DNA of 64,000 bases from an uncultured Clostridia bacterium (GCA_947628135.1 CANQYT010000010.1:151-64150); one strand, 5' to 3'; shown: positions 102-11,859, counted from the first letter of the stretch. Made by a program: numbers and translations. Notes: generated from the sequence alone by a model not told the origin.

Positions 102-716
102 ATGGCAGAAAAGGTGATTCGCTCACATAGAGCACGCGTCAAGCAGGCAAATGAAACGCTAAAGAACAATCCGCGATTTAAGCGTGAACGCATTTCGATT
201 ATCGACAGGGAAGCCTTTGTGGAATTTTTTCTTTTGGAGGATATTGTAAAATTATACAATATACGGCTAAGAGAGGAAAAAGCGTATATTCCTCGGGGAC
301 GTGCCGATGAAAAGGGGCGGCAGCAAAATATTGAAAAATTTTCCGCAATAATAGATGTTTTTAATGCGGCAATCGGTGCGGCAAGGTCCGCAATCAATTC
401 GGGAGATTACAAGCGCGTTTGGAAGGCGATTCACGAAGGTGCGCTGATGGCAACGGCTAATAGCGTCAGAAATTTGCCTGAATTGAAAAGGTTGGCAATA
501 GATTTGCTCAGAGAACTTTCTTCGGATATGACTTATTCTTTGGACGTGAGTCGGGAATTGGAGGAGGATCTCGATGATCTGGACGCTCACGAACAAAATG
601 TCCGTAAAGTCAAGAATCTTCCGCCGACAATGGATGAAATCGAAGAGGTCATCCGCGCGGCAGAAGCGGCAATACCGGACAGAAATAGAAACAGTAGAAT
701 AGATCCCAACACATAA
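102..716 (+). CDS. hypothetical alpha-helical protein (204 aa), basic N-half and acidic C-tail; possible second ESCRT-III-like subunit
   Basis: ORF with an AAGGAG RBS just upstream. First visible gene of a tightly packed same-strand operon. Same length and charge polarity as the adjacent Snf7-like ORF. Acidic helical tail EEDLDDLDAHEQNVRKVK...MDEIEEVIRAAEAA. No motif-level family match recognised. Confidence 0.6.
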   Translation: MAEKVIRSHRARVKQANETLKNNPRFKRERISIIDREAFVEFFLLEDIVKLYNIRLREEKAYIPRGRADEKGRQQNIEKFSAIIDVFNAAIGAARSAINSGDYKRVWKAIHEGALMATANSVRNLPELKRLAIDLLRELSSDMTYSLDVSRELEEDLDDLDAHEQNVRKVKNLPPTMDEIEEVIRAAEAAIPDRNRNSRIDPNT

Positions 717-731
717 AAAGGAGAGGTAACA

Positions 732-1346
732 ATGAGAAAAAAACAGACGAACGATGAGAAAATCATTTCTGCACTCGATGCATTGGACAAGTCCGTGCGA
801 AATCTTCAACAATTCGGAGCAAAATACGACCCATATATTGATGAGGCGGCTATCCGCGGCGACGACGCGCGGGCAAAACAACTCATAAAGCAAAAGATAC
901 GTATTTACGATCTTGTCGAACAACTAAAAACGCTCAAAAGTAACATCGAACTCGGCGCTTATACATCGTATGCGATTTCCGAACTCGGCAAGTTGCCTGC
1001 CGCGATTGCGGGGTGCAAGGGATTGCTGGCGGAGTCGCCGGATTTTTCAAAGTTGGGCAAGAGTATCACTTCGATATTTAAAGATATCGACAAGTCCGAA
1101 AGTGAGTTGGCAAAACTCAACGAAATACTCAATCCCAAACCTGCAGTAAGCATTCCAAGTCGATTGGACGGTGTCGCAGACGACGAAGCCTCAGATCAAT
1201 TCAAGGCAGAATATGCCGCTATGATCGAACGCGTCAAGGGCAAGGTCGCTCCCGAGGCGGTTGCAAAACCGAGCGGCACAGACGTAAACACAACGGGCGA
1301 CATCGACTATGCGGGCATTGTCGCCGAAGAAAACAAAAAGAAATAG
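732..1346 (+). CDS. Snf7/ESCRT-III-like protein (204 aa)
   Basis: GGAGAGG RBS. Length, basic N-terminal and acidic C-terminal polarity, and helical-hairpin pattern (AAIRGDDARAKQLIKQKIRIYDLVEQLKTLKSNIELGAYTSYAISELGKLPAAIAGCKGLL, then DFSKLGKSITSIFKDIDKSESELAKLNEIL) parallel the CHMP/Snf7 alpha1-alpha5 layout. Lies immediately upstream of a Vps4-like ATPase. Family call is by eye only. Confidence 0.55.
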   Translation: MRKKQTNDEKIISALDALDKSVRNLQQFGAKYDPYIDEAAIRGDDARAKQLIKQKIRIYDLVEQLKTLKSNIELGAYTSYAISELGKLPAAIAGCKGLLAESPDFSKLGKSITSIFKDIDKSESELAKLNEILNPKPAVSIPSRLDGVADDEASDQFKAEYAAMIERVKGKVAPEAVAKPSGTDVNTTGDIDYAGIVAEENKKK

Positions 1347-1352
1347 CGTACT

Positions 1353-2543
1353 ATGGCAGAAGCAAGTATGATCGGCATTTTTAATAGTAAGGTAAGCGCA
1401 TTTAACGAAGCCGTAAGTGCCGGTGATGTGGACGCTGTTTGTCAATTGGCTTCGGAAATGATCCAAATCTCCTTGGAACAGTGTGCCAATCCGAATGTCA
1501 GTACAACGCTCAAAGATACTTATCGTAAACAGTGCTTGGCAGTTACAAAGCATTTGGTACACTACGCAAAACGTACGCCCGTCGCTTCCTCCAATACGGG
1601 TGGTAGCGACGAGGGTTGCGCAGACCCCTACTATACTGAAAAAAATTGGTTCTCGGACGATGTGCCCAATCTGAATTTTACCAACATTATCGGAGTTCAG
1701 GATGTCAAGGACGCTTTTATGGTCGACGTCGTAGCCCCTCTGCGCTCTGAGTTTCAGGCAGTTTATCACAAATTCAGGGGCAATCAGCTTGGCACACAGA
1801 TTTTGTTGTACGGACCGCCCGGCACGGGAAAAACCCATATAGTCAAATGTCTTGCGGGTGCGCTTAATTGCAAAATCGCGGTAGTGCCCACAAGCGAAGT
1901 ATTGGCAAGTGTCGTTGGCGTGGCAGAGAAAAATATGCGAGACATTTTTGCGCAAGCCGAAAAACTCGATCGTTGCATAATTTTCTTTGACGAAATCGAC
2001 AGCATTTGTTCCGACCGAAGTAGCGATGATTCGCGGCACACCAAGTCGATACTTACCACAATGTTGACTTGTATGGACGGGTTTATGAAAACCAAAAAAC
2101 CCAACCAGTTGCGAATAATTGTTGCGGCGACCAACCTCCCTTGGAAGTTAGATGCGGCGCTAAAACGCGGCGGTCGGTTTGAAACTCAAATATATGTTCC
2201 GTTGCCGGACAAAGAGGCGCGCAAAAAATTTGTGGAACAGGATTTAACGCAAGTTCCTCACGCGTTGGATGTCACTGTGGAATATCTCGCAAACAAGTTG
2301 GAAGGTTACGCCGGTGCGGACATAAGGGCGGTAATGAAGCAAATTTCCAACGAGCCATTGCGTCGTGAAATATTGAACATAATGAAAACCGGCAAAGAAT
2401 GCGGCGAGATGGTTACGCTTGCCGACTGTGACAAAGTAATATCATCGTATATTAACGGCGTCAACAACGAGACGTTGCTGCGATTCAAAGCATACGATTT
2501 GGGTATTACATACGAGCAATTGCTTCAACAAATCAAGAGGTAA
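1353..2543 (+). CDS. Vps4/katanin-like (meiotic-clade) AAA ATPase with N-terminal MIT-like domain
   Basis: Walker A ILLYGPPGTGKTH and Walker B IIFFDEIDS. Second region of homology AATNLPWKLDAALKRGGRFETQIYVPLPD resembles Vps4 [27 protein letters not shown]. N-terminal about 75 aa is a three-helix pattern ending YRKQCLAVTKHLVHYAKR, like MIT helix 3 of Vps4. The pore-loop-1 position reads SVVGV, with no aromatic residue. Confidence 0.85.
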   Translation: MAEASMIGIFNSKVSAFNEAVSAGDVDAVCQLASEMIQISLEQCANPNVSTTLKDTYRKQCLAVTKHLVHYAKRTPVASSNTGGSDEGCADPYYTEKNWFSDDVPNLNFTNIIGVQDVKDAFMVDVVAPLRSEFQAVYHKFRGNQLGTQILLYGPPGTGKTHIVKCLAGALNCKIAVVPTSEVLASVVGVAEKNMRDIFAQAEKLDRCIIFFDEIDSICSDRSSDDSRHTKSILTTMLTCMDGFMKTKKPNQLRIIVAATNLPWKLDAALKRGGRFETQIYVPLPDKEARKKFVEQDLTQVPHALDVTVEYLANKLEGYAGADIRAVMKQISNEPLRREILNIMKTGKECGEMVTLADCDKVISSYINGVNNETLLRFKAYDLGITYEQLLQQIKR

Positions 2544-2549
2544 AACTAA

Positions 2550-3563
2550 TTGATCGATAAGGACAAAATTGCAACATACTACTCAAACGCACGGGAACTT
2601 GTTAAACAAAATAATCCCAAAGCGGCGAGGGCTTACGTTCTCGCCATTTTGAATTGTGCATTGGAAACATATCAAAAGGCAACTAAGATTTTGACAAAAG
2701 CCAAAACGCAAGCATTTTTGGACCAATGGATAAAAGTTTCTCGTGAACTTTACGACAAAGGTGTAACCGACTTTGTGTTAGGGTGTTTTGGTCTCCCCGT
2801 CAAGCAAGATTGTCAAGTTCCCAAAACAAAAGCCGATTCCGCGCAACAGCCGTCAAAATCTTCGTCGTCGCAAGGTAAGCCCGACACATCGTCGGTGGAT
2901 GAAGTAGACATTGCCGGTCTTGTTGAAGAGTGTGCAAAAACACAAGGTTGGTGTGCGGAGCAATTTGACAAGAACAAACGGGCTGTCGTGGAAATTTCCG
3001 CCTCCAACTCGCAAAAGAATTCGACCGGGACGGGATTTATCATATCGTCCAAAGGTTACTTGCTGACAAACGACCACATCGTATATGACGAAGACGCACA
3101 AGGTTACTATCCAAAAACCAAGATGTCACTTGCGGGAGGAAAAACCGTAAAGATCAACGTTCTGTTCTCCGACAAAAAGTCCGATGTGGCGCTTTGCAGT
3201 TTCGACCCCAATTCGGCGGGAAACTTCTCGGTGATCAAGCGAATCTCAGACTATTCTCGCGTGTTACAGGGAGCGGATTGCCTTGTGATAGGTAACGCTT
3301 TCGGTATGGGATTAGCGCCTTTTTCCGGTGTGGTTCGTTTTACAAAAAACGCCGAGGGAAATCTTGTGTATACTGCGCCGTCCAACCCCGGCGACTCCGG
3401 TGGTCCGGTATTGAACAGAAACGGCGAGTGCATAGGTATCAACAAGTCCAAGACGCTCACGGTGGACAATGTTTCGGCGGACGGCTACGTCAATGCAACG
3501 CCGATGGACAAAATTGAGGAGTTGCTGTACAAGTGGTGCGACGCAAACAACATTGAATTGTAA
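2550..3563 (+). CDS. cytoplasmic trypsin-like (S1/Trypsin_2) serine protease with N-terminal MIT-like helical domain
   Basis: TTG start with an AAGAGG RBS. Catalytic triad contexts: LLTNDHIV (His), SDVALCSF (Asp), GDSGGPVLNRNGECIGI (Ser). No signal peptide. N-terminal about 75 aa helical domain, then a Ser/Pro-rich linker carrying VDEVDIAGLVEE. Confidence 0.88.
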   Translation: MIDKDKIATYYSNARELVKQNNPKAARAYVLAILNCALETYQKATKILTKAKTQAFLDQWIKVSRELYDKGVTDFVLGCFGLPVKQDCQVPKTKADSAQQPSKSSSSQGKPDTSSVDEVDIAGLVEECAKTQGWCAEQFDKNKRAVVEISASNSQKNSTGTGFIISSKGYLLTNDHIVYDEDAQGYYPKTKMSLAGGKTVKINVLFSDKKSDVALCSFDPNSAGNFSVIKRISDYSRVLQGADCLVIGNAFGMGLAPFSGVVRFTKNAEGNLVYTAPSNPGDSGGPVLNRNGECIGINKSKTLTVDNVSADGYVNATPMDKIEELLYKWCDANNIEL

Positions 3564-3661
3564 AATAATTACTAAAATGGCATCAATCATAAAATTTCCC
3601 CGAAAGGTTCTTGGAGTAATTTGTTGTTTGGGTGAAAAATAAATATGGAGGGTAACTACAG

Positions 3662-4378
3662 ATGAAATATAGCATAAAAGAAGCAAAAGAAACAATTTTG
3701 TGTAATATTGATAGATTTCAGACAGATTCCAAGGAATTGTTACGAGTCGCTGTAAACTCACTCAATCGGTGTGGCGATGATTCGTCGCCTGTGTCAAGCA
3801 GATTAAACGACCTGTTGAACAATTTTTCAATCTTGGATGACTCCGGCAGGGAACGTTGGGCAGAAAATGTTTACATAGCTGTTGTTGCAATGAAGAGAAA
3901 AGATCTTTGCAAACAGGAAATCAAACAAAAGAATGGCAAAATAGATGGCGAGACGGCTCAGTGGATTACAACAGCGGTTCAAGGCGTGTTGGGGGTCGCG
4001 TCAGTTGTTTTTACGGTATTGTTTGCATTGGGTATTATCCCAAAAGATTCGTTTGGCGAATTGGGGGAAAATTCCGACGCATTTTATTATTTGATCGGAA
4101 CAATTTGTCAACAAGTTGTTGCATTTGTTATTGCGATTGTTATCGGTCTGTGGAATCGTTGTGTGATAAGAAAGAAATATGCCAACCAGACTTTCACATT
4201 TGAAGAACTTATGTCTGTCAAGTACGAAGGAAAACCCGTCAAATTTCTCATTCAACCGGTCACAAAGATGCTAAATGTAATGATTAGTATATTTAACTTT
4301 GGTGGTCAGACGATGGTAGTGGATAATCATGATGGCTCCAAGCCAACCGAATCGAATGAGGAGGAAAATAGCAGATGA
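3662..4378 (+). CDS. 2-TM membrane protein with N-terminal helical cytoplasmic domain (paralog of 11862-12647)
   Basis: GGAGGG RBS. Two hydrophobic helices (VLGVASVVFTVLFALGII and VVAFVIAIVIGLW). N-terminus MKYSIKEAKE and the WAENV motif are shared positionally with the 11862 ORF. Confidence 0.75.
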   Translation: MKYSIKEAKETILCNIDRFQTDSKELLRVAVNSLNRCGDDSSPVSSRLNDLLNNFSILDDSGRERWAENVYIAVVAMKRKDLCKQEIKQKNGKIDGETAQWITTAVQGVLGVASVVFTVLFALGIIPKDSFGELGENSDAFYYLIGTICQQVVAFVIAIVIGLWNRCVIRKKYANQTFTFEELMSVKYEGKPVKFLIQPVTKMLNVMISIFNFGGQTMVVDNHDGSKPTESNEEENSR

Positions 4379-6963
4379 CACAAAAAAAACAAACAAATAG
4401 AATATGGGCATTCGTCAATTTTGGAAGGCAGACAATTATAGATGGCGATTCGGCGTCGTTTTATAATTGTATGGAAGATATTCGTAAACAGTTGGCGCAA
4501 ATGGTGACCAAACAGGAGTTTCAGCAGTTTCAGAGTGCGATTAGTACACAACTTGGTAATTTACAACAAATTTGTAACAATATAAGTGACTTTAAACAAA
4601 AGAAAAAACTCGTTGATAAATTTGACGGAATGATACAATTGTTGCTTGAACAGAGTCAAGAGATACAAGCATGGACGCAACAAATCTCAAATATCAACGT
4701 GCAAAGTATGCTTGATGAGATTTCGGATGTTGCCACACAAGTCAAAGAGGAAATAAAAGACAAAAAAGAAAATCTTAAGAAACAGCAAACAAATCTTCAC
4801 AACGCAACCCAAAAAGCGCGTCCAAATAAAGAAGAGATTTTGCGTTATGCTGACATTGTACAGACCCAATCACCAGATGACTTTTTTGCAAAATTTTGTC
4901 AAGCACTTTACAGCGAAAATTATCGAGAGGCAATAGATTTTATAGATAAGATTGATGTTGAGCATCTCGAAAAAGATGTGTTAAAAGATACTCTCTGTTT
5001 TTTGATAAAGCTTATGCGCCGCGAATGGATTACACCTGCATCGGGGCTTATTGAACGTGCAAGTTTTGTTTTGGAAGATAATGAGGGTTCTTTTCGAGCT
5101 GCATATAGGACGCCATTTGAACAAAAAAAGAGACAAATTGACGAAAATGTTTACGGTATTCCGACGGGGCCATTTGTGTTTGTCGCTTATAATAGTGAAA
5201 ACGTTGTCCAGGTGTCGGAACTTGTTACATTTCTTGAAGAAACACCGGGCATCAAATGTTTTGTCGCTTTTAGAAATGTTGAGAATGGACTTGATAGCGG
5301 AGAATATATAGATAAACTTCACAAGGCGATGGAAAATTGCTCAATCTTTGTACTTTATTCGACATATAAGTCTCGCAACCAGGGCGGCTCCCTTGAAGAA
5401 ATGGAGTATATAATGAATGAAGATTACCATCGTGCTACACTAGCAGGAGAGCCCAAATATGACGCAAGAAGAGTCTACAGTGATCTTCCTGATGATTACA
5501 AAAAGCCCCGAGTGGAGTTTGTGCGGGAGACAAGACAATTAAATGAAAGAGACACCATTGCCGACAAGTTTTTTGGTACGACAACTCGTAGAACTGGAAG
5601 AGAGGAGTTGAAAAAAAGAATTCTTGAATTACTTCAGAACGAAAATCGCGACGATGCATCTACTCCGGAGCAAAGCGTGAAAGAAGCCCGTAAACCTACC
5701 GGAGATACGCACAAACACACCCCCAAACATTCGGCAAAACCCATAGTAGACAAAAAAAACAATGAGACTACGCAAAGCAAGTCTGATATAAATTCCTACG
5801 GCGAGCAAAAAAAAGAATCAGATTACAACAAGGAAGATGCCGAGAAAACGAGGATGAATCTGCTCTGCAAAAAAGCATTACGTGTTCTGTTGGAAAGAAA
5901 CGACGGCAAAGCTTCCATCGCGTCGATACAGCGCAATCTCGGAATAGGTTTCAACCGTGCGGGACGAATAATGGACACTTTACAGCGTTTGGGTTACGTA
6001 GAAACGCTTTCCCCAAGCGACCCGAGTTCCAAACCCTTGAAAGTGCTCATCACCCTAGAGGAGTTGGACGAACTGTTCCCTGATTTGAAAACGCAAGCAG
6101 TTGACCCCCCTATCCGATATACAATTACGTATTCCAATGTTAAAGGGGCAGCAAATTTCAATCCGACAGGTTACACAGTCAAAGATTTGCCCCTTGACGT
6201 CAAACCCATTGCAAAAGACGGCTATTCTTTTGTTGGTTGGTATGTTGATGAGGCTATGACAAAGGGTGTCACTCGACTTACGGAACAAGGCGACTATGTT
6301 TTGTATGCTAAGTGGATAAGACGGGTTGAACCAACCGACGAATTTTCAGAAGAAGCAAGGAAATACGTGTTGGGTTACACATCCGATGATATAGTGGACG
6401 GGTGTCTCTTATTCACCCCGAAGGCGGCTGGTAAAAGTTATGAGGTGCTAAAGTTACACAAGAGTGTGGAAAAATTGATTATTCCAAGGCAATTTGATGG
6501 ACTTCCGATAACAAGCATAGGCGAGAGGGCTTTCGATGGTTGTAGTAATTTGAAAGAAATAACTATTCCGAGCAGTGTCACAAGTATAGGCGAGTTGGCA
6601 TTCAGGGATTGCACCAATTTACAAACAGTGACTTTTGAGGACGACAGTAAACTACAAAGCATAGGCGATCTCGCTTTTAGCGGTTGTCACAATTTGCAAA
6701 CAGTTTATTATGGCGGGAGTAAGTACCAGTGGAAGAAAATTAAAATAGATTACAATGTTTCGATGTCGCCAAAGGTCAGACGCTATTACTTTTTTCATTA
6801 TTGGATCAAGTACCAGCGAAAGATACTTAGAGTATGTTACAGCAATTTTGCGTTGAAAAAAGCTAACCGCTATTATTATAGCGGGGAATTTCCGAAACGG
6901 AGCAAACGGTCTTTCTATTGGCATTGGGATGAAACAAAAACGCATCCGGTCATTTGGCAATAA
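4375..6963 (+). CDS. multidomain protein: coiled coil, TIR-like domain, FtsK-gamma winged helix, Listeria/Bacteroides (Flg_new) repeat, BspA-type LRR (LRR_5)
   Basis: ATGA overlap with the upstream gene and a GAGGAGG RBS. TIR-like block FVFVAYNSENVVQVSELVTFLEETPGIKCFVAFRNVENG...IFVLYSTYKSRNQGGSLEEMEY. FtsK-gamma signature SIASIQRNLGIGFNRAGRIMDTLQRLGYVE. Flg_new-like YTITYSNVKGA...GYSFVGWYVDEAMTKGV...YAKW. LRR_5 units IPSSVTSIGELAFRDCTNLQTV. No signal peptide or TM segment. Confidence 0.8.
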   Translation: MTQKKQTNRIWAFVNFGRQTIIDGDSASFYNCMEDIRKQLAQMVTKQEFQQFQSAISTQLGNLQQICNNISDFKQKKKLVDKFDGMIQLLLEQSQEIQAWTQQISNINVQSMLDEISDVATQVKEEIKDKKENLKKQQTNLHNATQKARPNKEEILRYADIVQTQSPDDFFAKFCQALYSENYREAIDFIDKIDVEHLEKDVLKDTLCFLIKLMRREWITPASGLIERASFVLEDNEGSFRAAYRTPFEQKKRQIDENVYGIPTGPFVFVAYNSENVVQVSELVTFLEETPGIKCFVAFRNVENGLDSGEYIDKLHKAMENCSIFVLYSTYKSRNQGGSLEEMEYIMNEDYHRATLAGEPKYDARRVYSDLPDDYKKPRVEFVRETRQLNERDTIADKFFGTTTRRTGREELKKRILELLQNENRDDASTPEQSVKEARKPTGDTHKHTPKHSAKPIVDKKNNETTQSKSDINSYGEQKKESDYNKEDAEKTRMNLLCKKALRVLLERNDGKASIASIQRNLGIGFNRAGRIMDTLQRLGYVETLSPSDPSSKPLKVLITLEELDELFPDLKTQAVDPPIRYTITYSNVKGAANFNPTGYTVKDLPLDVKPIAKDGYSFVGWYVDEAMTKGVTRLTEQGDYVLYAKWIRRVEPTDEFSEEARKYVLGYTSDDIVDGCLLFTPKAAGKSYEVLKLHKSVEKLIIPRQFDGLPITSIGERAFDGCSNLKEITIPSSVTSIGELAFRDCTNLQTVTFEDDSKLQSIGDLAFSGCHNLQTVYYGGSKYQWKKIKIDYNVSMSPKVRRYYFFHYWIKYQRKILRVCYSNFALKKANRYYYSGEFPKRSKRSFYWHWDETKTHPVIWQ

Positions 6964-6999
6964 GTGGAATATAGGTGATAAATTACGAAGAAGCAAAAA

Positions 7000-7307
7000 A
7001 TGACATTTGCAGATGAATTTCGTGAGAAGTATAGATTGGCGCTTCGGGCGGCGAGAGCAAACGATCGTGAGGCGACGCTTGCGGGATTGAAAGATTTGTA
7101 CGAACTTTTTGCTGCGCAGTACGCACTAAAAACGGCGACTCCGGTGGTCCGGCATTGAACAGAAACGGCGAGTGCATAGGTATCAACAAGTCCAAGACGT
7201 TCACGGTGGACAATGTTTCGGCAGACGGCTACGTCAATGCAACGCCGATGGACAAAATTGAAGAGCTGTTGAACAAGTGGTGCAAAAGCAATAATATTGA
7301 ATTGTAA
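7000..7307 (+). pseudogene. chimeric gene remnant: 5' end of the RuvB-like gene fused to the 3' end of the protease gene, frameshifted
   Basis: 7000-7139 is a near-identical copy of 10330-10470. 7134-7307 is a near-identical copy of 3390-3563. The junction is at a shared in-frame GGCGAC (Gly-Asp) hexamer. A 1-nt deletion just 5' of the junction (cttaacaacgg versus ctaaaaacgg) gives a TGA after 52 codons. No good RBS. Confidence 0.75.
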
Positions 7308-7345
7308 ATCTTGAAAGCGATATTACAACAAAAGGAAAACAAGTT

Positions 7346-10297
7346 ATGACGATTGATGACGCAATCAAAACTTTGAAACAAGTTTTAAATAAGCCCAGAG
7401 ACGAAAAAAGCGAAGAATTTGAACAAGTTGAAACGTCCGTAAAAAATAGCATAAATTTATTAAACTGTGTCAAAAACGACGTGCTGAAAAATCCAAAGGG
7501 TGGAGATTTTGAATTGCCGAATGAGATTGGACAGTATATTACTGGAATCGATGGCAAGTCGACGTATCCAATTTACGAAATAAATTTTCCATGGGCTGCA
7601 GAATTAAACAGAAGAATAGTGTGCGGTCTAAATGGGGATGAGGTAAAGAGGAGAATTAAATGGGATACTATTTCAAAGTGGTTAACTTTCATAGGGATAG
7701 TAATTACAATAGTGATTCTCATCGTGCTTTGTCGTTTTGTCGGGGATACCATGGTGTCGATCTCAGGGACTCTTCTTTCCGTAATCACTTCTTTCGTTCC
7801 TCTTTTGTTGGATCAATCACGCAACAAGAAGTTTTATCGTACCTACGGCATTTCTATCAAGGACATTAAAAGACCTCCGATTACCGATGAAGAATACAAA
7901 AAATATATCAAAGACGCGAGAAATCTATATAAGTCGCAGAATGTGTCGGAGAGGCCCAAATTTTTTAGGGAAGATATACGAGAAGCAAAAAAAATATATA
8001 ACAAATTGCTCAAAACAAGGAAAAATGACCCCAACTGTTATGTTGGGTTGCTTGCAGTCTATTCTAAGGGCTTTTCAAAATATTCCGGTAAGTTGAGGGA
8101 AGACTATTATATTCATAAGATTAACAAGTGGAAAGGTGATGAGAAGCATTCGCATTTAGATAAGGAGTACAAAAATGATTATACAACATATACGAAAAAC
8201 ATAGTTAAACCCTATCAAGAAAACCAAAAGCAAACCAAGACGAAAAAAAACGAACAACATAGCGAGCGTGTTGCACACGCCATTTTGGTCTGGCAAAAAA
8301 TTGGAATATGTGCTGTTCTGCTACTTCCAATAATTCTCTCGAGCGTGGTTTTGGCTTTGGTATATTGCTTACCCGTAAAGACATTTGACGATTGGACGGG
8401 TTGGCTACTCACGATTATCTTTGCATTGGATTGCCTATCTGTGATAGCGGTAATTGTGCTTTTGATAGTACTTATGGTAGCAGATAATCCGGATTTCTCC
8501 GGTTTTGTGGTGGAACCTGGTGGTGTATGGGCAGCGATATGTGGAATATGCGGGGGAACATATATAATTGCTAGTATAGAAATACCGTATTGGGTGCTAA
8601 TTCTGATAGCGGTTGTTTGCCTTGCTATGTGTTTAGCTTGTCTTATTTGGGGTCTTGTAGACACAGACACATGCAAACGGCGTCTTCTTCTTGTTTGCAT
8701 TTGTATTTGTAGCGTTTTGGTTGGTTGTGCGCTTTACAGCGGTGGCCGGACTTTCTCGGAATTTGAGTCATATTATACTGAAAACCCGGACGGAACATAT
8801 ACATATCTTGTTTGGGATGAGAATGTGGAAAATTTGCAAATCCCATCCGAATATCAAGGAAAACCGGTTACTGCTATCAGTCGAGCCGACAATGTCGATT
8901 TATCCCACCTAAAATCTGTATTCATCCCCGAAAGCGTGACGTCGATTGAATTCGGGGCTTTCTCCGGTTGTAGCGCGCTTACAAATATTACGGTGCCGTA
9001 CGTGGGATATTATGATATATCTGGAGTTAAAGATTACGAAGGTGAAGCGGAGACTTTGCACCCCCTTGGGCATTTGTTCGGCACTTCGCCCTACAGTGGG
9101 GGCGTAGCGACAGAGCAATATTACTGGGGAAAGTATCTCAGTGGTGATGATGCGGGCAGAGCTGAAATTTTTTACAACACTTACTATATTCCGGAATCAC
9201 TGAAACATATAACCGTACTTGGTGGCGAAGTTTGCAACGGAGCGTTCTATGGCTGTACAAATCTTGAAAGCGTCACATTGGGTGACGGAGTGACGGCGAT
9301 TGGCGAATATGCGTTTCGAGATTGTACTTCTCTTGTGAGCGTCGCCATTGGCGAGGGTGTTACCGGTATTGGGGAAAACGCTTTTTTGAATTGTAGTGGG
9401 CTTACGAACATATATATCCCCGAAAGTGTGACGTCGATCGAGTCGGGGGCTTTCTCCGGTTGTAGCGCGCTTACAAATATTACGGTGCCGTATGTGGGAT
9501 ATTATAATATAGCCGAAGTTACAGATTACGACGGCGAAGCGGAGACTTTGCGCCCCATTGGGCATTTGTTTGGTGCCTCGCCTTACAGTGGGGGCGTAGC
9601 GATAGAGCAACGATATATTTGGGGAAAGTATCTCAGCGGGGACGAGTCGGGCGAAGAATCTGTATTTTCCAAAACTTACTATATTCCGGAATCACTGAAA
9701 CATATAACCGTACTTGGTGGCGAAGTTTGTAACGGAGCGTTCTATGGCTGTACAAATCTTGAAAGCGTCACATTGGGTGACGGTGTGACTGCGATTGGCG
9801 AATATGCGTTTCAAGATTGTACTTCTCTGGTGAGTGTCGCCATTGGCGAGAGTGTTACTACTATTGGGAAGGACGCTTTTCTAAACTGCAATGCCGTTCA
9901 AAAAAACAAAGGCATTTTGTATGTTGGCAATTGGGTTGTCGGGTGTGATAACACTGTGACAGAAGCAGAACTATCAAATGATGCCACGGGAATTGCAAAT
10001 TATGCTTTTGCAGATTTCGCATCCCTTACTTCCGTAATCTTGAACGAAAACCTAAAAATTATCGGAGAGGGCGCATTTCAAGGAACAGGAATAACCACAA
10101 TGGTAATTCCACAATCGGTTGCGGTCATTGACGCCAATGCTTTTAGTGGGTGTACACTTTCAGAAGTTGTTTTTGATAATGTTGACGAATGGTATGCGGA
10201 CAAAACTTATGTACCGTATTCCGACCTACTTGATGCCACAAAAGCCGCAAGTTGCTTAACTTCGACATACGTCGAATGTGTGTGGAAACGCGGCTAA
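7346..10297 (+). CDS. polytopic (about 7 TM) membrane protein with N-terminal helical cytoplasmic domain and C-terminal extracytoplasmic BspA-type LRR domain
   Basis: 983-aa ORF with an AAAGGA RBS. Hydrophobic helices lie at about aa 115-160 and 315-470. C-terminal half consists of repeated LRR_5 units (IPESVTSIE.GAFSGCSALTNITVP, VTAIGEYAF.DCTSLVSV). Confidence 0.85.
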   Translation: MTIDDAIKTLKQVLNKPRDEKSEEFEQVETSVKNSINLLNCVKNDVLKNPKGGDFELPNEIGQYITGIDGKSTYPIYEINFPWAAELNRRIVCGLNGDEVKRRIKWDTISKWLTFIGIVITIVILIVLCRFVGDTMVSISGTLLSVITSFVPLLLDQSRNKKFYRTYGISIKDIKRPPITDEEYKKYIKDARNLYKSQNVSERPKFFREDIREAKKIYNKLLKTRKNDPNCYVGLLAVYSKGFSKYSGKLREDYYIHKINKWKGDEKHSHLDKEYKNDYTTYTKNIVKPYQENQKQTKTKKNEQHSERVAHAILVWQKIGICAVLLLPIILSSVVLALVYCLPVKTFDDWTGWLLTIIFALDCLSVIAVIVLLIVLMVADNPDFSGFVVEPGGVWAAICGICGGTYIIASIEIPYWVLILIAVVCLAMCLACLIWGLVDTDTCKRRLLLVCICICSVLVGCALYSGGRTFSEFESYYTENPDGTYTYLVWDENVENLQIPSEYQGKPVTAISRADNVDLSHLKSVFIPESVTSIEFGAFSGCSALTNITVPYVGYYDISGVKDYEGEAETLHPLGHLFGTSPYSGGVATEQYYWGKYLSGDDAGRAEIFYNTYYIPESLKHITVLGGEVCNGAFYGCTNLESVTLGDGVTAIGEYAFRDCTSLVSVAIGEGVTGIGENAFLNCSGLTNIYIPESVTSIESGAFSGCSALTNITVPYVGYYNIAEVTDYDGEAETLRPIGHLFGASPYSGGVAIEQRYIWGKYLSGDESGEESVFSKTYYIPESLKHITVLGGEVCNGAFYGCTNLESVTLGDGVTAIGEYAFQDCTSLVSVAIGESVTTIGKDAFLNCNAVQKNKGILYVGNWVVGCDNTVTEAELSNDATGIANYAFADFASLTSVILNENLKIIGEGAFQGTGITTMVIPQSVAVIDANAFSGCTLSEVVFDNVDEWYADKTYVPYSDLLDATKAASCLTSTYVECVWKRG
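8924..9885 (+). repeat. tandem duplication of about 492 bp (about 164 aa) inside the LRR gene
   Basis: 8924-9415 and 9416-about 9885 align almost base for base. Both run from ATCCCCGAAAG.GTGACGTCGAT through GGTGACGG.GTGAC.GCGATTGGCGAATATGCGTTTC, with one codon indel. Confidence 0.85.
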
Positions 10298-10329
10298 TAA
10301 ATTGTTAATGATAAAAAAAGGAGACACAT

Positions 10330-11859
10330 ATGACATTTGCAGATGAATTTCGTGAGAAGTATAGATTGGCGCTTCGGGCGGCGAGAGCAAACGATTGTGA
10401 GGCGACGCTTGCGGGATTGAAAGATTTGTACGAACTTTTTGCTGCGCAGTACGCACTTAACAACGGCGACAGCATTGTGGTAAAGGCAAAACTTTCCTAT
10501 TGGCAGGATGTTTTCGGCGGCTATATCCAACTGATCCGTACCAATGGATTGCAGGATAGGCGTGTGCAAAAATTTTTCGGTTTGATCGACGATTCGGACG
10601 TTCCTTCGCTGGGAGATTTTTTGAGCGGTAAAGGTGCGAACGCATTGCCACCGCAAGCCACGGAAACAACTCCTCCTTGTGATGTGGATATTGCAGGTAT
10701 AGTAGATGAAGATTTGACCGAGCAACCGTCGAATCCGCCGCAAGCCAAGCAAAATGAGCCTATTTTGAATAGTGAAGGGCAATCGCCGATAGGTTTGACC
10801 CCGCCGTCTATTGAGCAACTTCCTCAACGGCCCGTTGCGGTAAAAGAAGATGTCGCGCCTGCGTTTGACCATCCGTCTGCGGAAAAAGTGGCGACTCCCG
10901 CCTATGCGCCCGACAGTTTGGAACACTTCATTGGACAGCAGCACATTGTCAAAGTGTTGCTTAAAGAAATTGCCATTGCCAAGGCAGAGGGCAAGCGTCA
11001 TCTTGACAACATTTTACTTTTGGGTAATCCCGGTCTGGGCAAAACCACATTGATGAGGTTGATTGCCGCTCAACTTGGGGTTCGGTTTGAGTGGATGGAT
11101 TGTTCTCAGTATCGCAACAGTCGGCAATCAATGAAGGCGCTCCAAAATTTTTTGGTGCGAATTGCACGAGAGAGTGAACCGGTAGTTATCGGTTTTGACG
11201 AGATTCACTGCCTTCCCGATGAGTTACAGGAAAGTCTGCTTACGCTGTTGGAAAGCAGAGTGTATGTGTCGCCCCCGGATATAAACGGCAATGTAAAACG
11301 GATACCGATTGAAGAGTTTACATTTATTGCCGCAACGACAGATGACGACAAAGTAAAAAATACAATCAAAGACCGCTGTCTGCGACTTAAATTTCAACTT
11401 GTAGACTACACAACAGATGAGTTGGCACAGATATACAGAACAAAGATTTTTGCAAAAGGTCTAACCATAACGGAAGAAGCAATACAAATTTGCATACCGC
11501 GCAGCCGCGGCTCGATACGTTATGTAAATTCTTTTGTAGACGGGATGGAGCGAGAGTTATACGATACCAACGGCAACAAACTTTCCACGCATATTGACCG
11601 CGAAACGGCGTTGAGATTTTTTGACGAACGCGGAATTGACGAGATGGGGTTGGAAAACAAGGACCGCGAAATACTAAATACCCTTTATGAGGCGGCAACG
11701 CCCATGGGCGCGGAAACTTTGTCGGCGCGCGTGGGACTTGACCCCAAAAAGTACCTTTCCGAGTACGAGCCGTATCTCATTCGTATTGGCTTTGTGGACG
11801 TTTCCGGCAGGGGTAGAAGTTTGACAGAAAAAGCAAAAGAATATTTGAAGGAAGAATAA
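10330..11859 (+). CDS. RuvB-like AAA+ ATPase with N-terminal MIT-like helical domain
   Basis: AAGGAGA RBS. RuvB-type core FIGQQHIVKVLLKEIAIAKAEGKRHLDNILLLGNPGLGKTTL, Walker B VIGFDEIH, IAATTDDDKVKNTIKDRC. RuvB domain-III-like winged helix GLENKDREILNTLYE...YEPYLIRIGFVDVSGRGRSLT. About 200-aa N-terminal extension made of a helical domain plus a linker with CDVDIAGIVDED. Confidence 0.88.
   Translation: MTFADEFREKYRLALRAARANDCEATLAGLKDLYELFAAQYALNNGDSIVVKAKLSYWQDVFGGYIQLIRTNGLQDRRVQKFFGLIDDSDVPSLGDFLSGKGANALPPQATETTPPCDVDIAGIVDEDLTEQPSNPPQAKQNEPILNSEGQSPIGLTPPSIEQLPQRPVAVKEDVAPAFDHPSAEKVATPAYAPDSLEHFIGQQHIVKVLLKEIAIAKAEGKRHLDNILLLGNPGLGKTTLMRLIAAQLGVRFEWMDCSQYRNSRQSMKALQNFLVRIARESEPVVIGFDEIHCLPDELQESLLTLLESRVYVSPPDINGNVKRIPIEEFTFIAATTDDDKVKNTIKDRCLRLKFQLVDYTTDELAQIYRTKIFAKGLTITEEAIQICIPRSRGSIRYVNSFVDGMERELYDTNGNKLSTHIDRETALRFFDERGIDEMGLENKDREILNTLYEAATPMGAETLSARVGLDPKKYLSEYEPYLIRIGFVDVSGRGRSLTEKAKEYLKEE

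Follow-up and report, generated by a model that had tools for sequence, protein, structure and literature searches.

A peptide motif shared by the tail of a Snf7-like protein and the linkers of two enzymes with MIT-like domains on a Clostridia mobile element, and its possible role in docking

The C-terminal tails of ESCRT-III proteins carry MIT-interacting motifs (MIMs), of which MIM1 is a helix of the form (D/E)xxLxxRLxxL(K/R) and MIM2, including that of archaea, is proline-rich. In eukaryotes, these tails recruit enzymes that possess an MIT domain, among them VPS4, spastin, katanin, AMSH, USP8, and the protease CAPN7, and binding of IST1 is reported to activate CAPN7 (PMC9477494). In archaea, the MIM2 of CdvB is paired with the MIT domain of the AAA ATPase CdvC/Vps4 (PDB 2w2u, 2v6y). 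Tail recruitment of MIT enzymes is regarded as eukaryotic and archaeal, and the bacterial ESCRT-III proteins PspA and Vipp1 are without it (PMC7619361). Reviews of bacterial ESCRT-III describe PspA and Vipp1, and Vps4-like ATPases transferred to bacteria without Snf7 (PMC7619361, PMC11237479). We analyzed 64,000 nucleotides of DNA from an uncultured Clostridia bacterium (GCA_947628135.1 CANQYT010000010.1:151-64150; this whole stretch is referred to as the window), where a gene encoding a Snf7-like, i.e., ESCRT-III-like, protein is found in one cassette with genes for a classical AAA ATPase, an HtrA-like serine protease, and a RuvB-like AAA+ protein. A single short peptide motif ends the Snf7-like protein and recurs in the linkers of the protease and the RuvB-like protein.

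The logic of this locus is that of the known ESCRT-III tails and MIT domains, and what is new is the setting, the peptide, the enzymes, and the copies of the peptide built into the enzymes. As in the eukaryotic system (PMC9477494), a conserved peptide ends a flexible C-terminal tail, the enzymes have an N-terminal three-helix domain of MIT type followed by a disordered linker, and the enzymes that would be recruited include a protease, as CAPN7 is there, and AAA+ ATPases. The present system differs in being bacterial, in being carried by a mobile element, and in forming a single cassette. Its peptide, Φ-[DN]-Φ-x-G-Φ-Φ (Φ, hydrophobic), fits no described MIM and is also present in the enzyme linkers, and the candidates for binding it are a serine protease of HtrA-like type and a RuvB-like motor. 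With the archaeal Cdv system it shares the prokaryotic pairing of an ESCRT-III protein with a AAA ATPase. The best structural matches of the RuvB-like N-domain include the MIT domain of CdvC, and the AAA ATPase aligns to the CdvC model, but the MIT-like fold is found here on the N-domain of the protease and RuvB-like protein rather than on the AAA ATPase, and CdvA is not present. PspA and Vipp1 are likewise bacterial members of the ESCRT-III superfamily, some linked to AAA+ ATPases (PMC7619361, PMC11237479), whereas the protein described here matches the Snf7 profile and not PspA, possesses the tail motif, and has neighboring enzymes with MIT-like domains. It is probable that a gut-bacterial mobile element uses the tail-and-docking-domain recruitment logic of the eukaryotic and archaeal ESCRT systems. 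Full-text literature searches found no published description of a bacterial Snf7-like/AAA/MIT-like protease/RuvB-like cassette or of its motif, no such cassette is described in the bacterial ESCRT-III reviews (PMC7619361, PMC11237479), and a major survey of conflict systems in bacteria mentions neither MIT nor Snf7 nor Vps4.

The pattern [DE][IV]D[IY]AG[IL]V has exactly three matches in the six reading frames of the window (124,044 codons), against 7.6e-5 expected from amino-acid frequencies, and the observation is far beyond chance. The positions of the three copies and of the other features are listed in Table 1. The tail copy is followed immediately by the stop codon at 1344-1346, and the 16-residue tail peptide of the Snf7-like protein is TTGDIDYAGIVAEENKKK. 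The protease copy lies six residues upstream of a conserved TQGWCAE that marks the start of the protease domain. A preliminary description made from the window alone had given the motif as D-[IV]-D-[IY]-A-G-[IL]-V-x-E, and its three peptides are present, although the protease copy begins with E-V-D-I and the first position needs to be [DE]. Its positions for the tail and protease copies (1296-1343 and 2895-2930) are correct. In the RuvB-like copy, DVDIAGIVDED occupies 10681-10713, and a start at 10681 leaves out the Cys of CDVDIAGIVDED, one codon upstream at 10678-10680. The 24-nucleotide coding stretches of the three copies have pairwise identities of 14-17/24 and differ at synonymous positions, and therefore the likeness of the copies is at the protein level and a recent DNA duplication of the motif is ruled out. 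Chance and low complexity are also ruled out, by the excess of matches over expectation and by the off-family matches in related loci, which are at the level of shuffled sequence.

Table 1 Positions of the cassette genes, domains, and motif copies in the window.
Feature	Position	Strand	Remarks
g01, 204 aa	102..716	+	directly upstream of the Snf7-like gene in 25/25 core loci
Snf7-like (ESCRT-III-like) protein, 204 aa	732..1346	+	Pfam Snf7 E 5e-5, 23.4 bits vs gathering score 27.3
Tail copy of the motif, GDIDYAGIVAEENKKK (G-DIDYAGIV-AEENKKK)	1296..1343	+	extreme C-terminus of Snf7-like open reading frame 732-1346
Classical AAA+ ATPase, 396 aa, helical N-domain of ~95 aa	1353..2543	+	Pfam AAA 1.4e-35; in the Vps4/CdvC position
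Protease, MIT-like N-domain, residues 1-83	2550..2798	+	homology to RuvB-like N-domain; fold inferred from the RuvB-like model
Protease linker copy of the motif, VDEVDIAGLVEE (VD-EVDIAGLV-EE), residues 116-127	2895..2930	+	open reading frame 2550-3563
HtrA/DegP-like trypsin-fold serine protease domain	2940..3563	+	Pfam Trypsin_2 4e-19; NCBIfam degP_htrA family 1.6e-23, below cut-off
Variable slot: transmembrane protein, TIR/FtsK-gamma/LRR_5 protein, transmembrane + LRR_5 protein	3662..10297	+	content varies among loci
RuvB-like protein, MIT-like N-domain	10330..10626	+	AlphaFold2 pLDDT (predicted local distance difference test) 92-98; top 5 Foldseek matches MIT
RuvB-like linker copy of the motif, CDVDIAGIVDED (C-DVDIAGIV-DED), residues 117-128	10678..10713	+	open reading frame 10330-11859
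RuvB-like AAA+ module (RuvB_N, AAA lid, RuvB_C winged helix)	10897..11859	+	Pfam RuvB_N 6e-18, RuvB_C 1e-15
Transmembrane and coiled-coil proteins, Hsp70/actin-fold ATPase, ClpP, CD1115-family VirD4-like coupling protein, FtsK-gamma protein, XRE regulator	downstream of 11859	+	

The refutation proposed in the preliminary description, that the motif would not be conserved in homologous loci, did not materialize. We scored the generalized motif Φ-[DNSE]-Φ-x-G-Φ-Φ in sets of homologs, where the protease and RuvB-like ortholog sets (120 proteins each) were gathered by similarity of the enzymes and were not selected on the motif, and the Snf7-like set comprised the best 120 of 248 homologs (71-100% identity). 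It is present in the tail of 116/120 Snf7-like homologs, in all 120 protease orthologs (G123 conserved in 100%, D120 in 99%, and L124 in 98%), and in 101/120 RuvB-like orthologs (G123 conserved in 95%). Among the best 120 Snf7-like homologs, the tail is kept as TG[DEN][IV]D[YF][AE]G[IL][IVM]xEENKKK, with T188, G189, D192, Y193, G195, I196, E200, and N201 at least 97% conserved, and the preceding seven to eight residues vary freely. The usual form of the RuvB-like copy is GG[IV][DN]IxGI[IV]xP, with the Asp often replaced by Asn or Ser, and the trailing x-E of the original pattern is thus not kept in this family, where x-P is usual, whereas the core Φ-[DN]-Φ-x-G-Φ-Φ is robust. Each family has its own flavor of the motif: the tail has Tyr and Ile, the protease Ile and Leu, and the RuvB-like protein Ile and Ile with a Pro after them. 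Whereas columns of the flanking linker have an entropy of approximately 3 bits, those of the motif have 0-0.8 bits in the protease and the Snf7-like tail, and the core motif columns of the RuvB-like protein have 0.4-1.6 bits. The motif is a conserved island within the fast-evolving linkers of all three families. In the Snf7-like protein it occupies residues 188-204 of 204, at the extreme C-terminus behind a hypervariable stretch (181-187), and the placement is of MIM type, as had been proposed.

The motif appears to be confined to these three families within the loci that encode them. A scan of one genome per GTDB species, in which one of two search patterns was the tail motif, yielded 25 loci, from uncultured Clostridia and Christensenellales (many of them rabbit gut metagenome-assembled genomes), Anaeroplasma and other Mollicutes, and one Bacilli metagenome-assembled genome. 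The motif pattern has 63 matches across all open reading frames of these loci, of which 57 are in the Snf7-like, protease, and RuvB-like proteins; the other six compare with a shuffled expectation of 5.35, and no further motif-bearing protein was found above chance. The motif is absent from g01 and the AAA ATPase in all their orthologs in these loci. The gene order g01, Snf7-like, AAA, protease, variable slot, and RuvB-like is found in the 25 loci wherever the contig is long enough, and two of them (L023 and L025) lack the exact search pattern yet carry the tail variants DLDFSGII and EVDFSSIM.

To place the N-domains of the two motif-bearing enzymes, they were compared with each other and with known structures. 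The protease N-domain (residues 1-88) aligns end to end with that of the RuvB-like protein (residues 1-92) over 85 columns (hhalign probability 92%, E 6e-7). The full-length RuvB-like model built with AlphaFold2 on 98 orthologs has a mean pLDDT of 85, and its N-domain is an antiparallel three-helix bundle of about 75 residues (helices 3-19, 23-42, and 49-72), the arrangement of the MIT family (PF04212), followed by short helices at 77-82 and 94-98. A separate model of residues 1-134 has the same fold. In a Foldseek search of the PDB, ranks 1-5 are all MIT domains, including NRBF2 (2crb, 4zey), the Sulfolobus CdvC/Vps4-like MIT (2v6y), and 2w2u, the CdvC MIT domain with an ESCRT-III peptide (TM-score 0.74, root-mean-square deviation 2.1 A, 70 columns, probability 1.0). 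MIT domains (NRBF2, CdvC, VPS4A/B, spastin, and katanin) make up at least 14 of the top 50 matches, with TM-scores up to 0.74 and probabilities of 0.99-1.0 but non-significant E-values of 0.25-0.55, which is to be expected of such a small fold. When 1.84 billion representative proteins were searched with a profile of the N-domain, it was found in only 38 clusters, all RuvB-like or protease except for two, and these two TPR-repeat proteins were rejected as further carriers, having been matched through their repeats. In distant members there is no clean pattern between a KAK signature at the start of helix 3 and the presence of the motif. Directly after the RuvB-like N-domain is a conserved linker element, PS[FL][GS]D[IF][LM]xG (PSLGDFL in the window, 10603-10626), modeled as the short helix 94-98 with pLDDT 75-89; this helix may be the true cis-docking element, and the protease has no equivalent of it.

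The catalytic domains behind the linkers are recognizable in both enzymes. The protease keeps its catalytic motifs in most orthologs (His in 119/120, Asp in 113/120, and Ser in 108/120), has no Pfam match to a PDZ domain, and terminates with the protease domain. The RuvB-like module matches RuvB 8efv (Foldseek E 7e-23, approximately 320 columns) and has Walker A and Walker B in 120/120 orthologs, and it remains below the RuvB equivalog cut-offs (162 bits vs 282, and 148 vs 299). Judged by sequence, it is a RuvB-like paralog carrying an extra N-domain.

The identity of the Snf7-like protein, as first proposed, is supported by a Pfam Snf7 (PF03357) match in 33/36 orthologs (E up to 0.01, best 2e-6), which is below the gathering score and covers helix 1 only. 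Just upstream of its variable linker, residues 155-172 (SDQFKAEYAAMIERVKGK, window 1194-1247) are nearly invariant, and they could form a second tail element, with the AAA N-domain perhaps as its reader. The g01 protein has no family match in Pfam, PHROG, or NCBIfam. Its C-terminus (window 540-716) has a conserved acidic stretch and helix, LDDLDAHEENVR...DEIEEVIRAAEAAIPD, which may be another docking element and which is missing from a fusion of g01 to the Snf7-like protein in a related locus (L026).

The AAA ATPase is a single classical AAA cassette encoded beside an ESCRT-III-like gene, as for Vps4 and CdvC, and its Walker A, Walker B, and arginine-finger region are invariant. The NCBIfam CdvC model aligns to residues 51-380 with 140.5 bits (cut-off 650), and the CDC48 and FtsH models score higher. 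The Cdc48/p97, FtsH, and CdvC models are all below cut-off, and that of CdvC alone aligns back to residue 51. Among PDB matches, Vps4 (2.7e-38) is weaker than Cdc48/p97. The N-domain (residues 1-95) has no Pfam or PDB sequence match, and no homology to the N-domains of the two enzymes was detectable (hhalign probability <4%). In Vps4 and CdvC, pore loop 1 is expected to have an aromatic residue (K-W/Y/F-x-G). The corresponding loop here (1908-1919) is S-[VI]-V-G, S-V-V-G in the window, without an aromatic residue in 25/25 orthologs, which is unusual for a substrate-threading classical AAA protein.

To determine which copies of the motif persist when parts of the cassette are missing, related loci were compared. 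The AAA gene is found in 24 of the 25 loci, the sole exception being L016 (9983-11664), where the protease gene begins 24 nt after the Snf7-like gene and where the tail is canonical and all three copies are intact. Three loci (L026-28) encode an integrase, a g01-Snf7-like fusion with the tail KIDYADILAKENRRK, and a protease without an internal copy, and have neither the AAA nor the RuvB-like gene. The fusion is a single 390-aa protein (L026:1573-2745) with 66% identity to g01 and 51% to the Snf7-like protein, which argues that g01 and the Snf7-like protein work together. Four more distant loci have Snf7-like, AAA, protease, and RuvB-like genes and no internal copies: in L032, the one divergent locus with a detectable g01 relative, the tail core is kept (GINDIFGMI); in L031 the tail is altered (ADIDAITAMIDEENRKK); and in L029 and L030 the Snf7-like gene is a positional equivalent with weak similarity and the tail is unrelated. 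Internal copies without a tail motif were never seen in the sampled loci. The tail therefore has the older, more persistent copy of the motif, and the internal copies are derived within the core clade. Since the tail motif is kept in L016 and L026-28, all without the AAA gene, the motif is independent of the AAA ATPase, and in L026-28 the protease MIT-like N-domain is the only candidate docking domain left. Downstream of the distant cassette in L029 (6479-11598) and L030 are genes for two JAB deubiquitinase-like proteins, for three small ubiquitin-like proteins, of which one is fused to a larger protein, and for a ThiF/E1-like protein, placing an ESCRT-like module beside a ubiquitin-like conjugation module in a bacterium.

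It is quite possible that the motif serves for docking, as a short linear peptide of an ESCRT-III-like system on an integrative mobile element. We tentatively favor, somewhat short of calling it probable, a reading in which the MIT-like domains of the two enzymes bind the tail as a MIM-like ligand, with the internal copies as weaker, derived competitors. The Snf7-like protein and g01 would polymerize, each subunit displaying TG-D-I-D-Y-A-G-I-V-x-EENKKK on a flexible C-terminal tail, and this tail would be a new kind of MIM, to which the HtrA-like protease and the RuvB-like ATPase would bind through their paralogous MIT-like N-domains. Binding would concentrate both enzymes on the polymer and would probably activate them there. 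In the core clade, each enzyme would have gained a weaker copy of the peptide, 20-35 residues past its own MIT-like domain, which most likely competes for the site of the tail, such that the free enzyme would be engaged with itself in cis or head-to-tail in trans until the densely arrayed tails of the polymer displaced the internal copies. The classical AAA ATPase would remodel the polymer in the role of Vps4/CdvC. The comparative data fit internal copies that mimic the tail, and do not discriminate between the cis and trans arrangements. More ambitiously, gut Clostridia and Mollicutes could carry a mobile element with a self-contained bacterial ESCRT-III/MIT code, in which a polymer platform and a new class of tail motif recruit and activate a protease and a RuvB-like DNA motor that are otherwise held off by their built-in ligand copies; we consider this doubtful. 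On this view, the system may serve membrane remodeling for DNA transfer or abortive defense, and it would be the first MIT-domain effector enzyme set outside archaea and eukaryotes.

Several results weigh against docking of the tail on MIT-like domains. The Snf7 score is below the Pfam gathering score (23.4 vs 27.3 bits), and the profile of Snf7-like orthologs matched no solved ESCRT-III structure in the PDB at E-values up to 1. By inspection, TGDIDYAGIVAEENKKK fits neither MIM1 nor MIM2. No MIT match to the full-length enzymes was found in Pfam at E-values up to 0.1, and no MIT chain was found in a PDB profile search with the N-domains at E-values up to 10. Together with the non-significant Foldseek E-values, this means that the domain is called MIT-like by fold, short of proven membership in the family. 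For the MIT-like domains named in the preliminary description, the modeled fold is a three-helix bundle whose top five PDB matches are MIT domains, and no sequence method finds MIT in them. The 25-locus set is biased toward the tail by the tail-motif search pattern. The internal copies are dispensable in the distant systems, and the RuvB-like copy has decayed in approximately 16% of orthologs. Finally, it had been suggested that the internal copies could be cis-autoinhibitory pseudo-ligands, but in both AlphaFold2 models, full-length and N-terminal, the RuvB-like copy (residues 118-125) is left undocked with pLDDT <50 (approximately 40). AlphaFold2 therefore gives no support to a cis contact, and this argues against a strong one.

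The undocked internal copy is also consistent with a different receptor. ESCRT-III proteins have autoinhibitory C-terminal helices that fold back on the core, and the tail could similarly fold back on the Snf7-like core or bridge subunits, through the core or g01, with the enzyme copies docking at the same site to ride on or open the polymer. The constant adjacency of g01 and the Snf7-like gene, their fusion in L026-28, and the tail copy being the oldest and best conserved would all suit such a receptor. We nevertheless consider it unlikely: it would leave the MIT-like domains without a ligand, although binding of ESCRT-III tails is the main described role of this fold, and N-domains and tails persist together in distant systems without internal copies.

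It is less probable again, and on the whole improbable, that the motif is a tag read by the N-domain of the AAA ATPase, which would make the Snf7-like protein, the protease, and the RuvB-like protein all clients of a Vps4-like unfoldase. Vps4 and CdvC do bind ESCRT-III tails through MIT domains (2w2u being among the Foldseek matches), and the AAA ATPase is the only protein of the cassette that has an N-terminal helical domain and no motif. This domain, however, shows no sequence relation to MIT or to the other N-domains, L029 and L030 have the AAA gene and no motif, and the loci without the AAA gene keep all three copies (L016) or the tail motif (L026-28).

Proteolytic activation is common in bacterial conflict systems, and the motif could be a shared cleavage site of the cassette protease, whose catalytic triad is intact; cleavage exactly between the targeting and catalytic domains of both enzymes would free the latter from the MIT-like domains, and would trim the Snf7-like tail. 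We judge this slightly more improbable still. There is no obvious purpose in the loss of 8-12 residues from the Snf7-like tail, many RuvB-like orthologs have Asn or Ser in place of the Asp, some systems have a protease predicted to be active and no internal copies, and the alternating hydrophobics with Gly are more like a docking peptide. Docking elsewhere by strand addition or into a pocket, either on ClpP, which the island encodes with no Clp ATPase nearby and whose hydrophobic pockets would be used in a loosely IGF-loop-like manner, or on a ubiquitin-like fold in the manner of the acidic-hydrophobic SUMO-interacting motif (SIM) and LC3-interacting region (LIR) peptides that the motif resembles, is highly improbable despite the ubiquitin-like, E1, and JAB genes adjoining a distant cassette, given that the residue preceding the Gly is small or polar, unlike [LIV]-G-[FL], that none of the core loci showed a ubiquitin-like gene, and that L029 and L030, which have such genes, are without the motif.

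Docking of the tail on the MIT-like domains has a parallel among HtrA-family proteases, where DegS and DegP are autoinhibited via a peptide-binding PDZ domain. The protease described here is likewise a trypsin-fold HtrA-like domain joined to a small, putatively peptide-binding domain, and the C-terminal peptide of another protein could switch it on; by analogy of mechanism only, the N-terminal MIT-like domain and the internal ligand copy would replace the PDZ domain, which is not present. If this docking is correct, the cassette would be a simple test system for the recruitment and activation of enzymes by polymer-displayed tails, with a built-in competitor copy included, and it would be informative as to how the ESCRT toolkit originated and spread horizontally. 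The cassette flags an uncharacterized functional module on conjugation-related elements of the gut microbiome.

The cassette is carried by an integrative element with a conjugation coupling protein. The first part of the window (1-25500) has a G+C content of 39-46%, compared with 51-57% downstream, and this low-G+C island encodes the CD1115-family VirD4-like coupling protein, ClpP, two FtsK-gamma proteins, a TIR domain, and the Hsp70/actin-fold ATPase. No relaxase or VirB4 was recognized in the island. The ClpP and coupling-protein block is downstream of the cassette in the window and upstream of it in related loci. Among known defense systems, PADLOC detected only generic AAA (IetA, TRIP13) and protease matches, and no relatives of the Snf7-like protein were found in phage, plasmid, or IMG/VR collections.

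The variable slot between the protease and RuvB-like genes contains fragments of both flanks. Positions 6988-7130 are a 95% copy of the 5' end of the RuvB-like gene (10318-10460), and 7133-7308 are a 92% copy of the 3' end of the protease gene (3389-3564). This junction (6988-7308) lies between two sets of transmembrane/LRR_5 genes, which suggests that the variable cassettes are swapped or stacked via recombination on the conserved flanks. The transmembrane and LRR_5 gene at 7346-10297 has an internal tandem duplication (8919-9893) with a period of approximately 490 nt and 87-89% identity.

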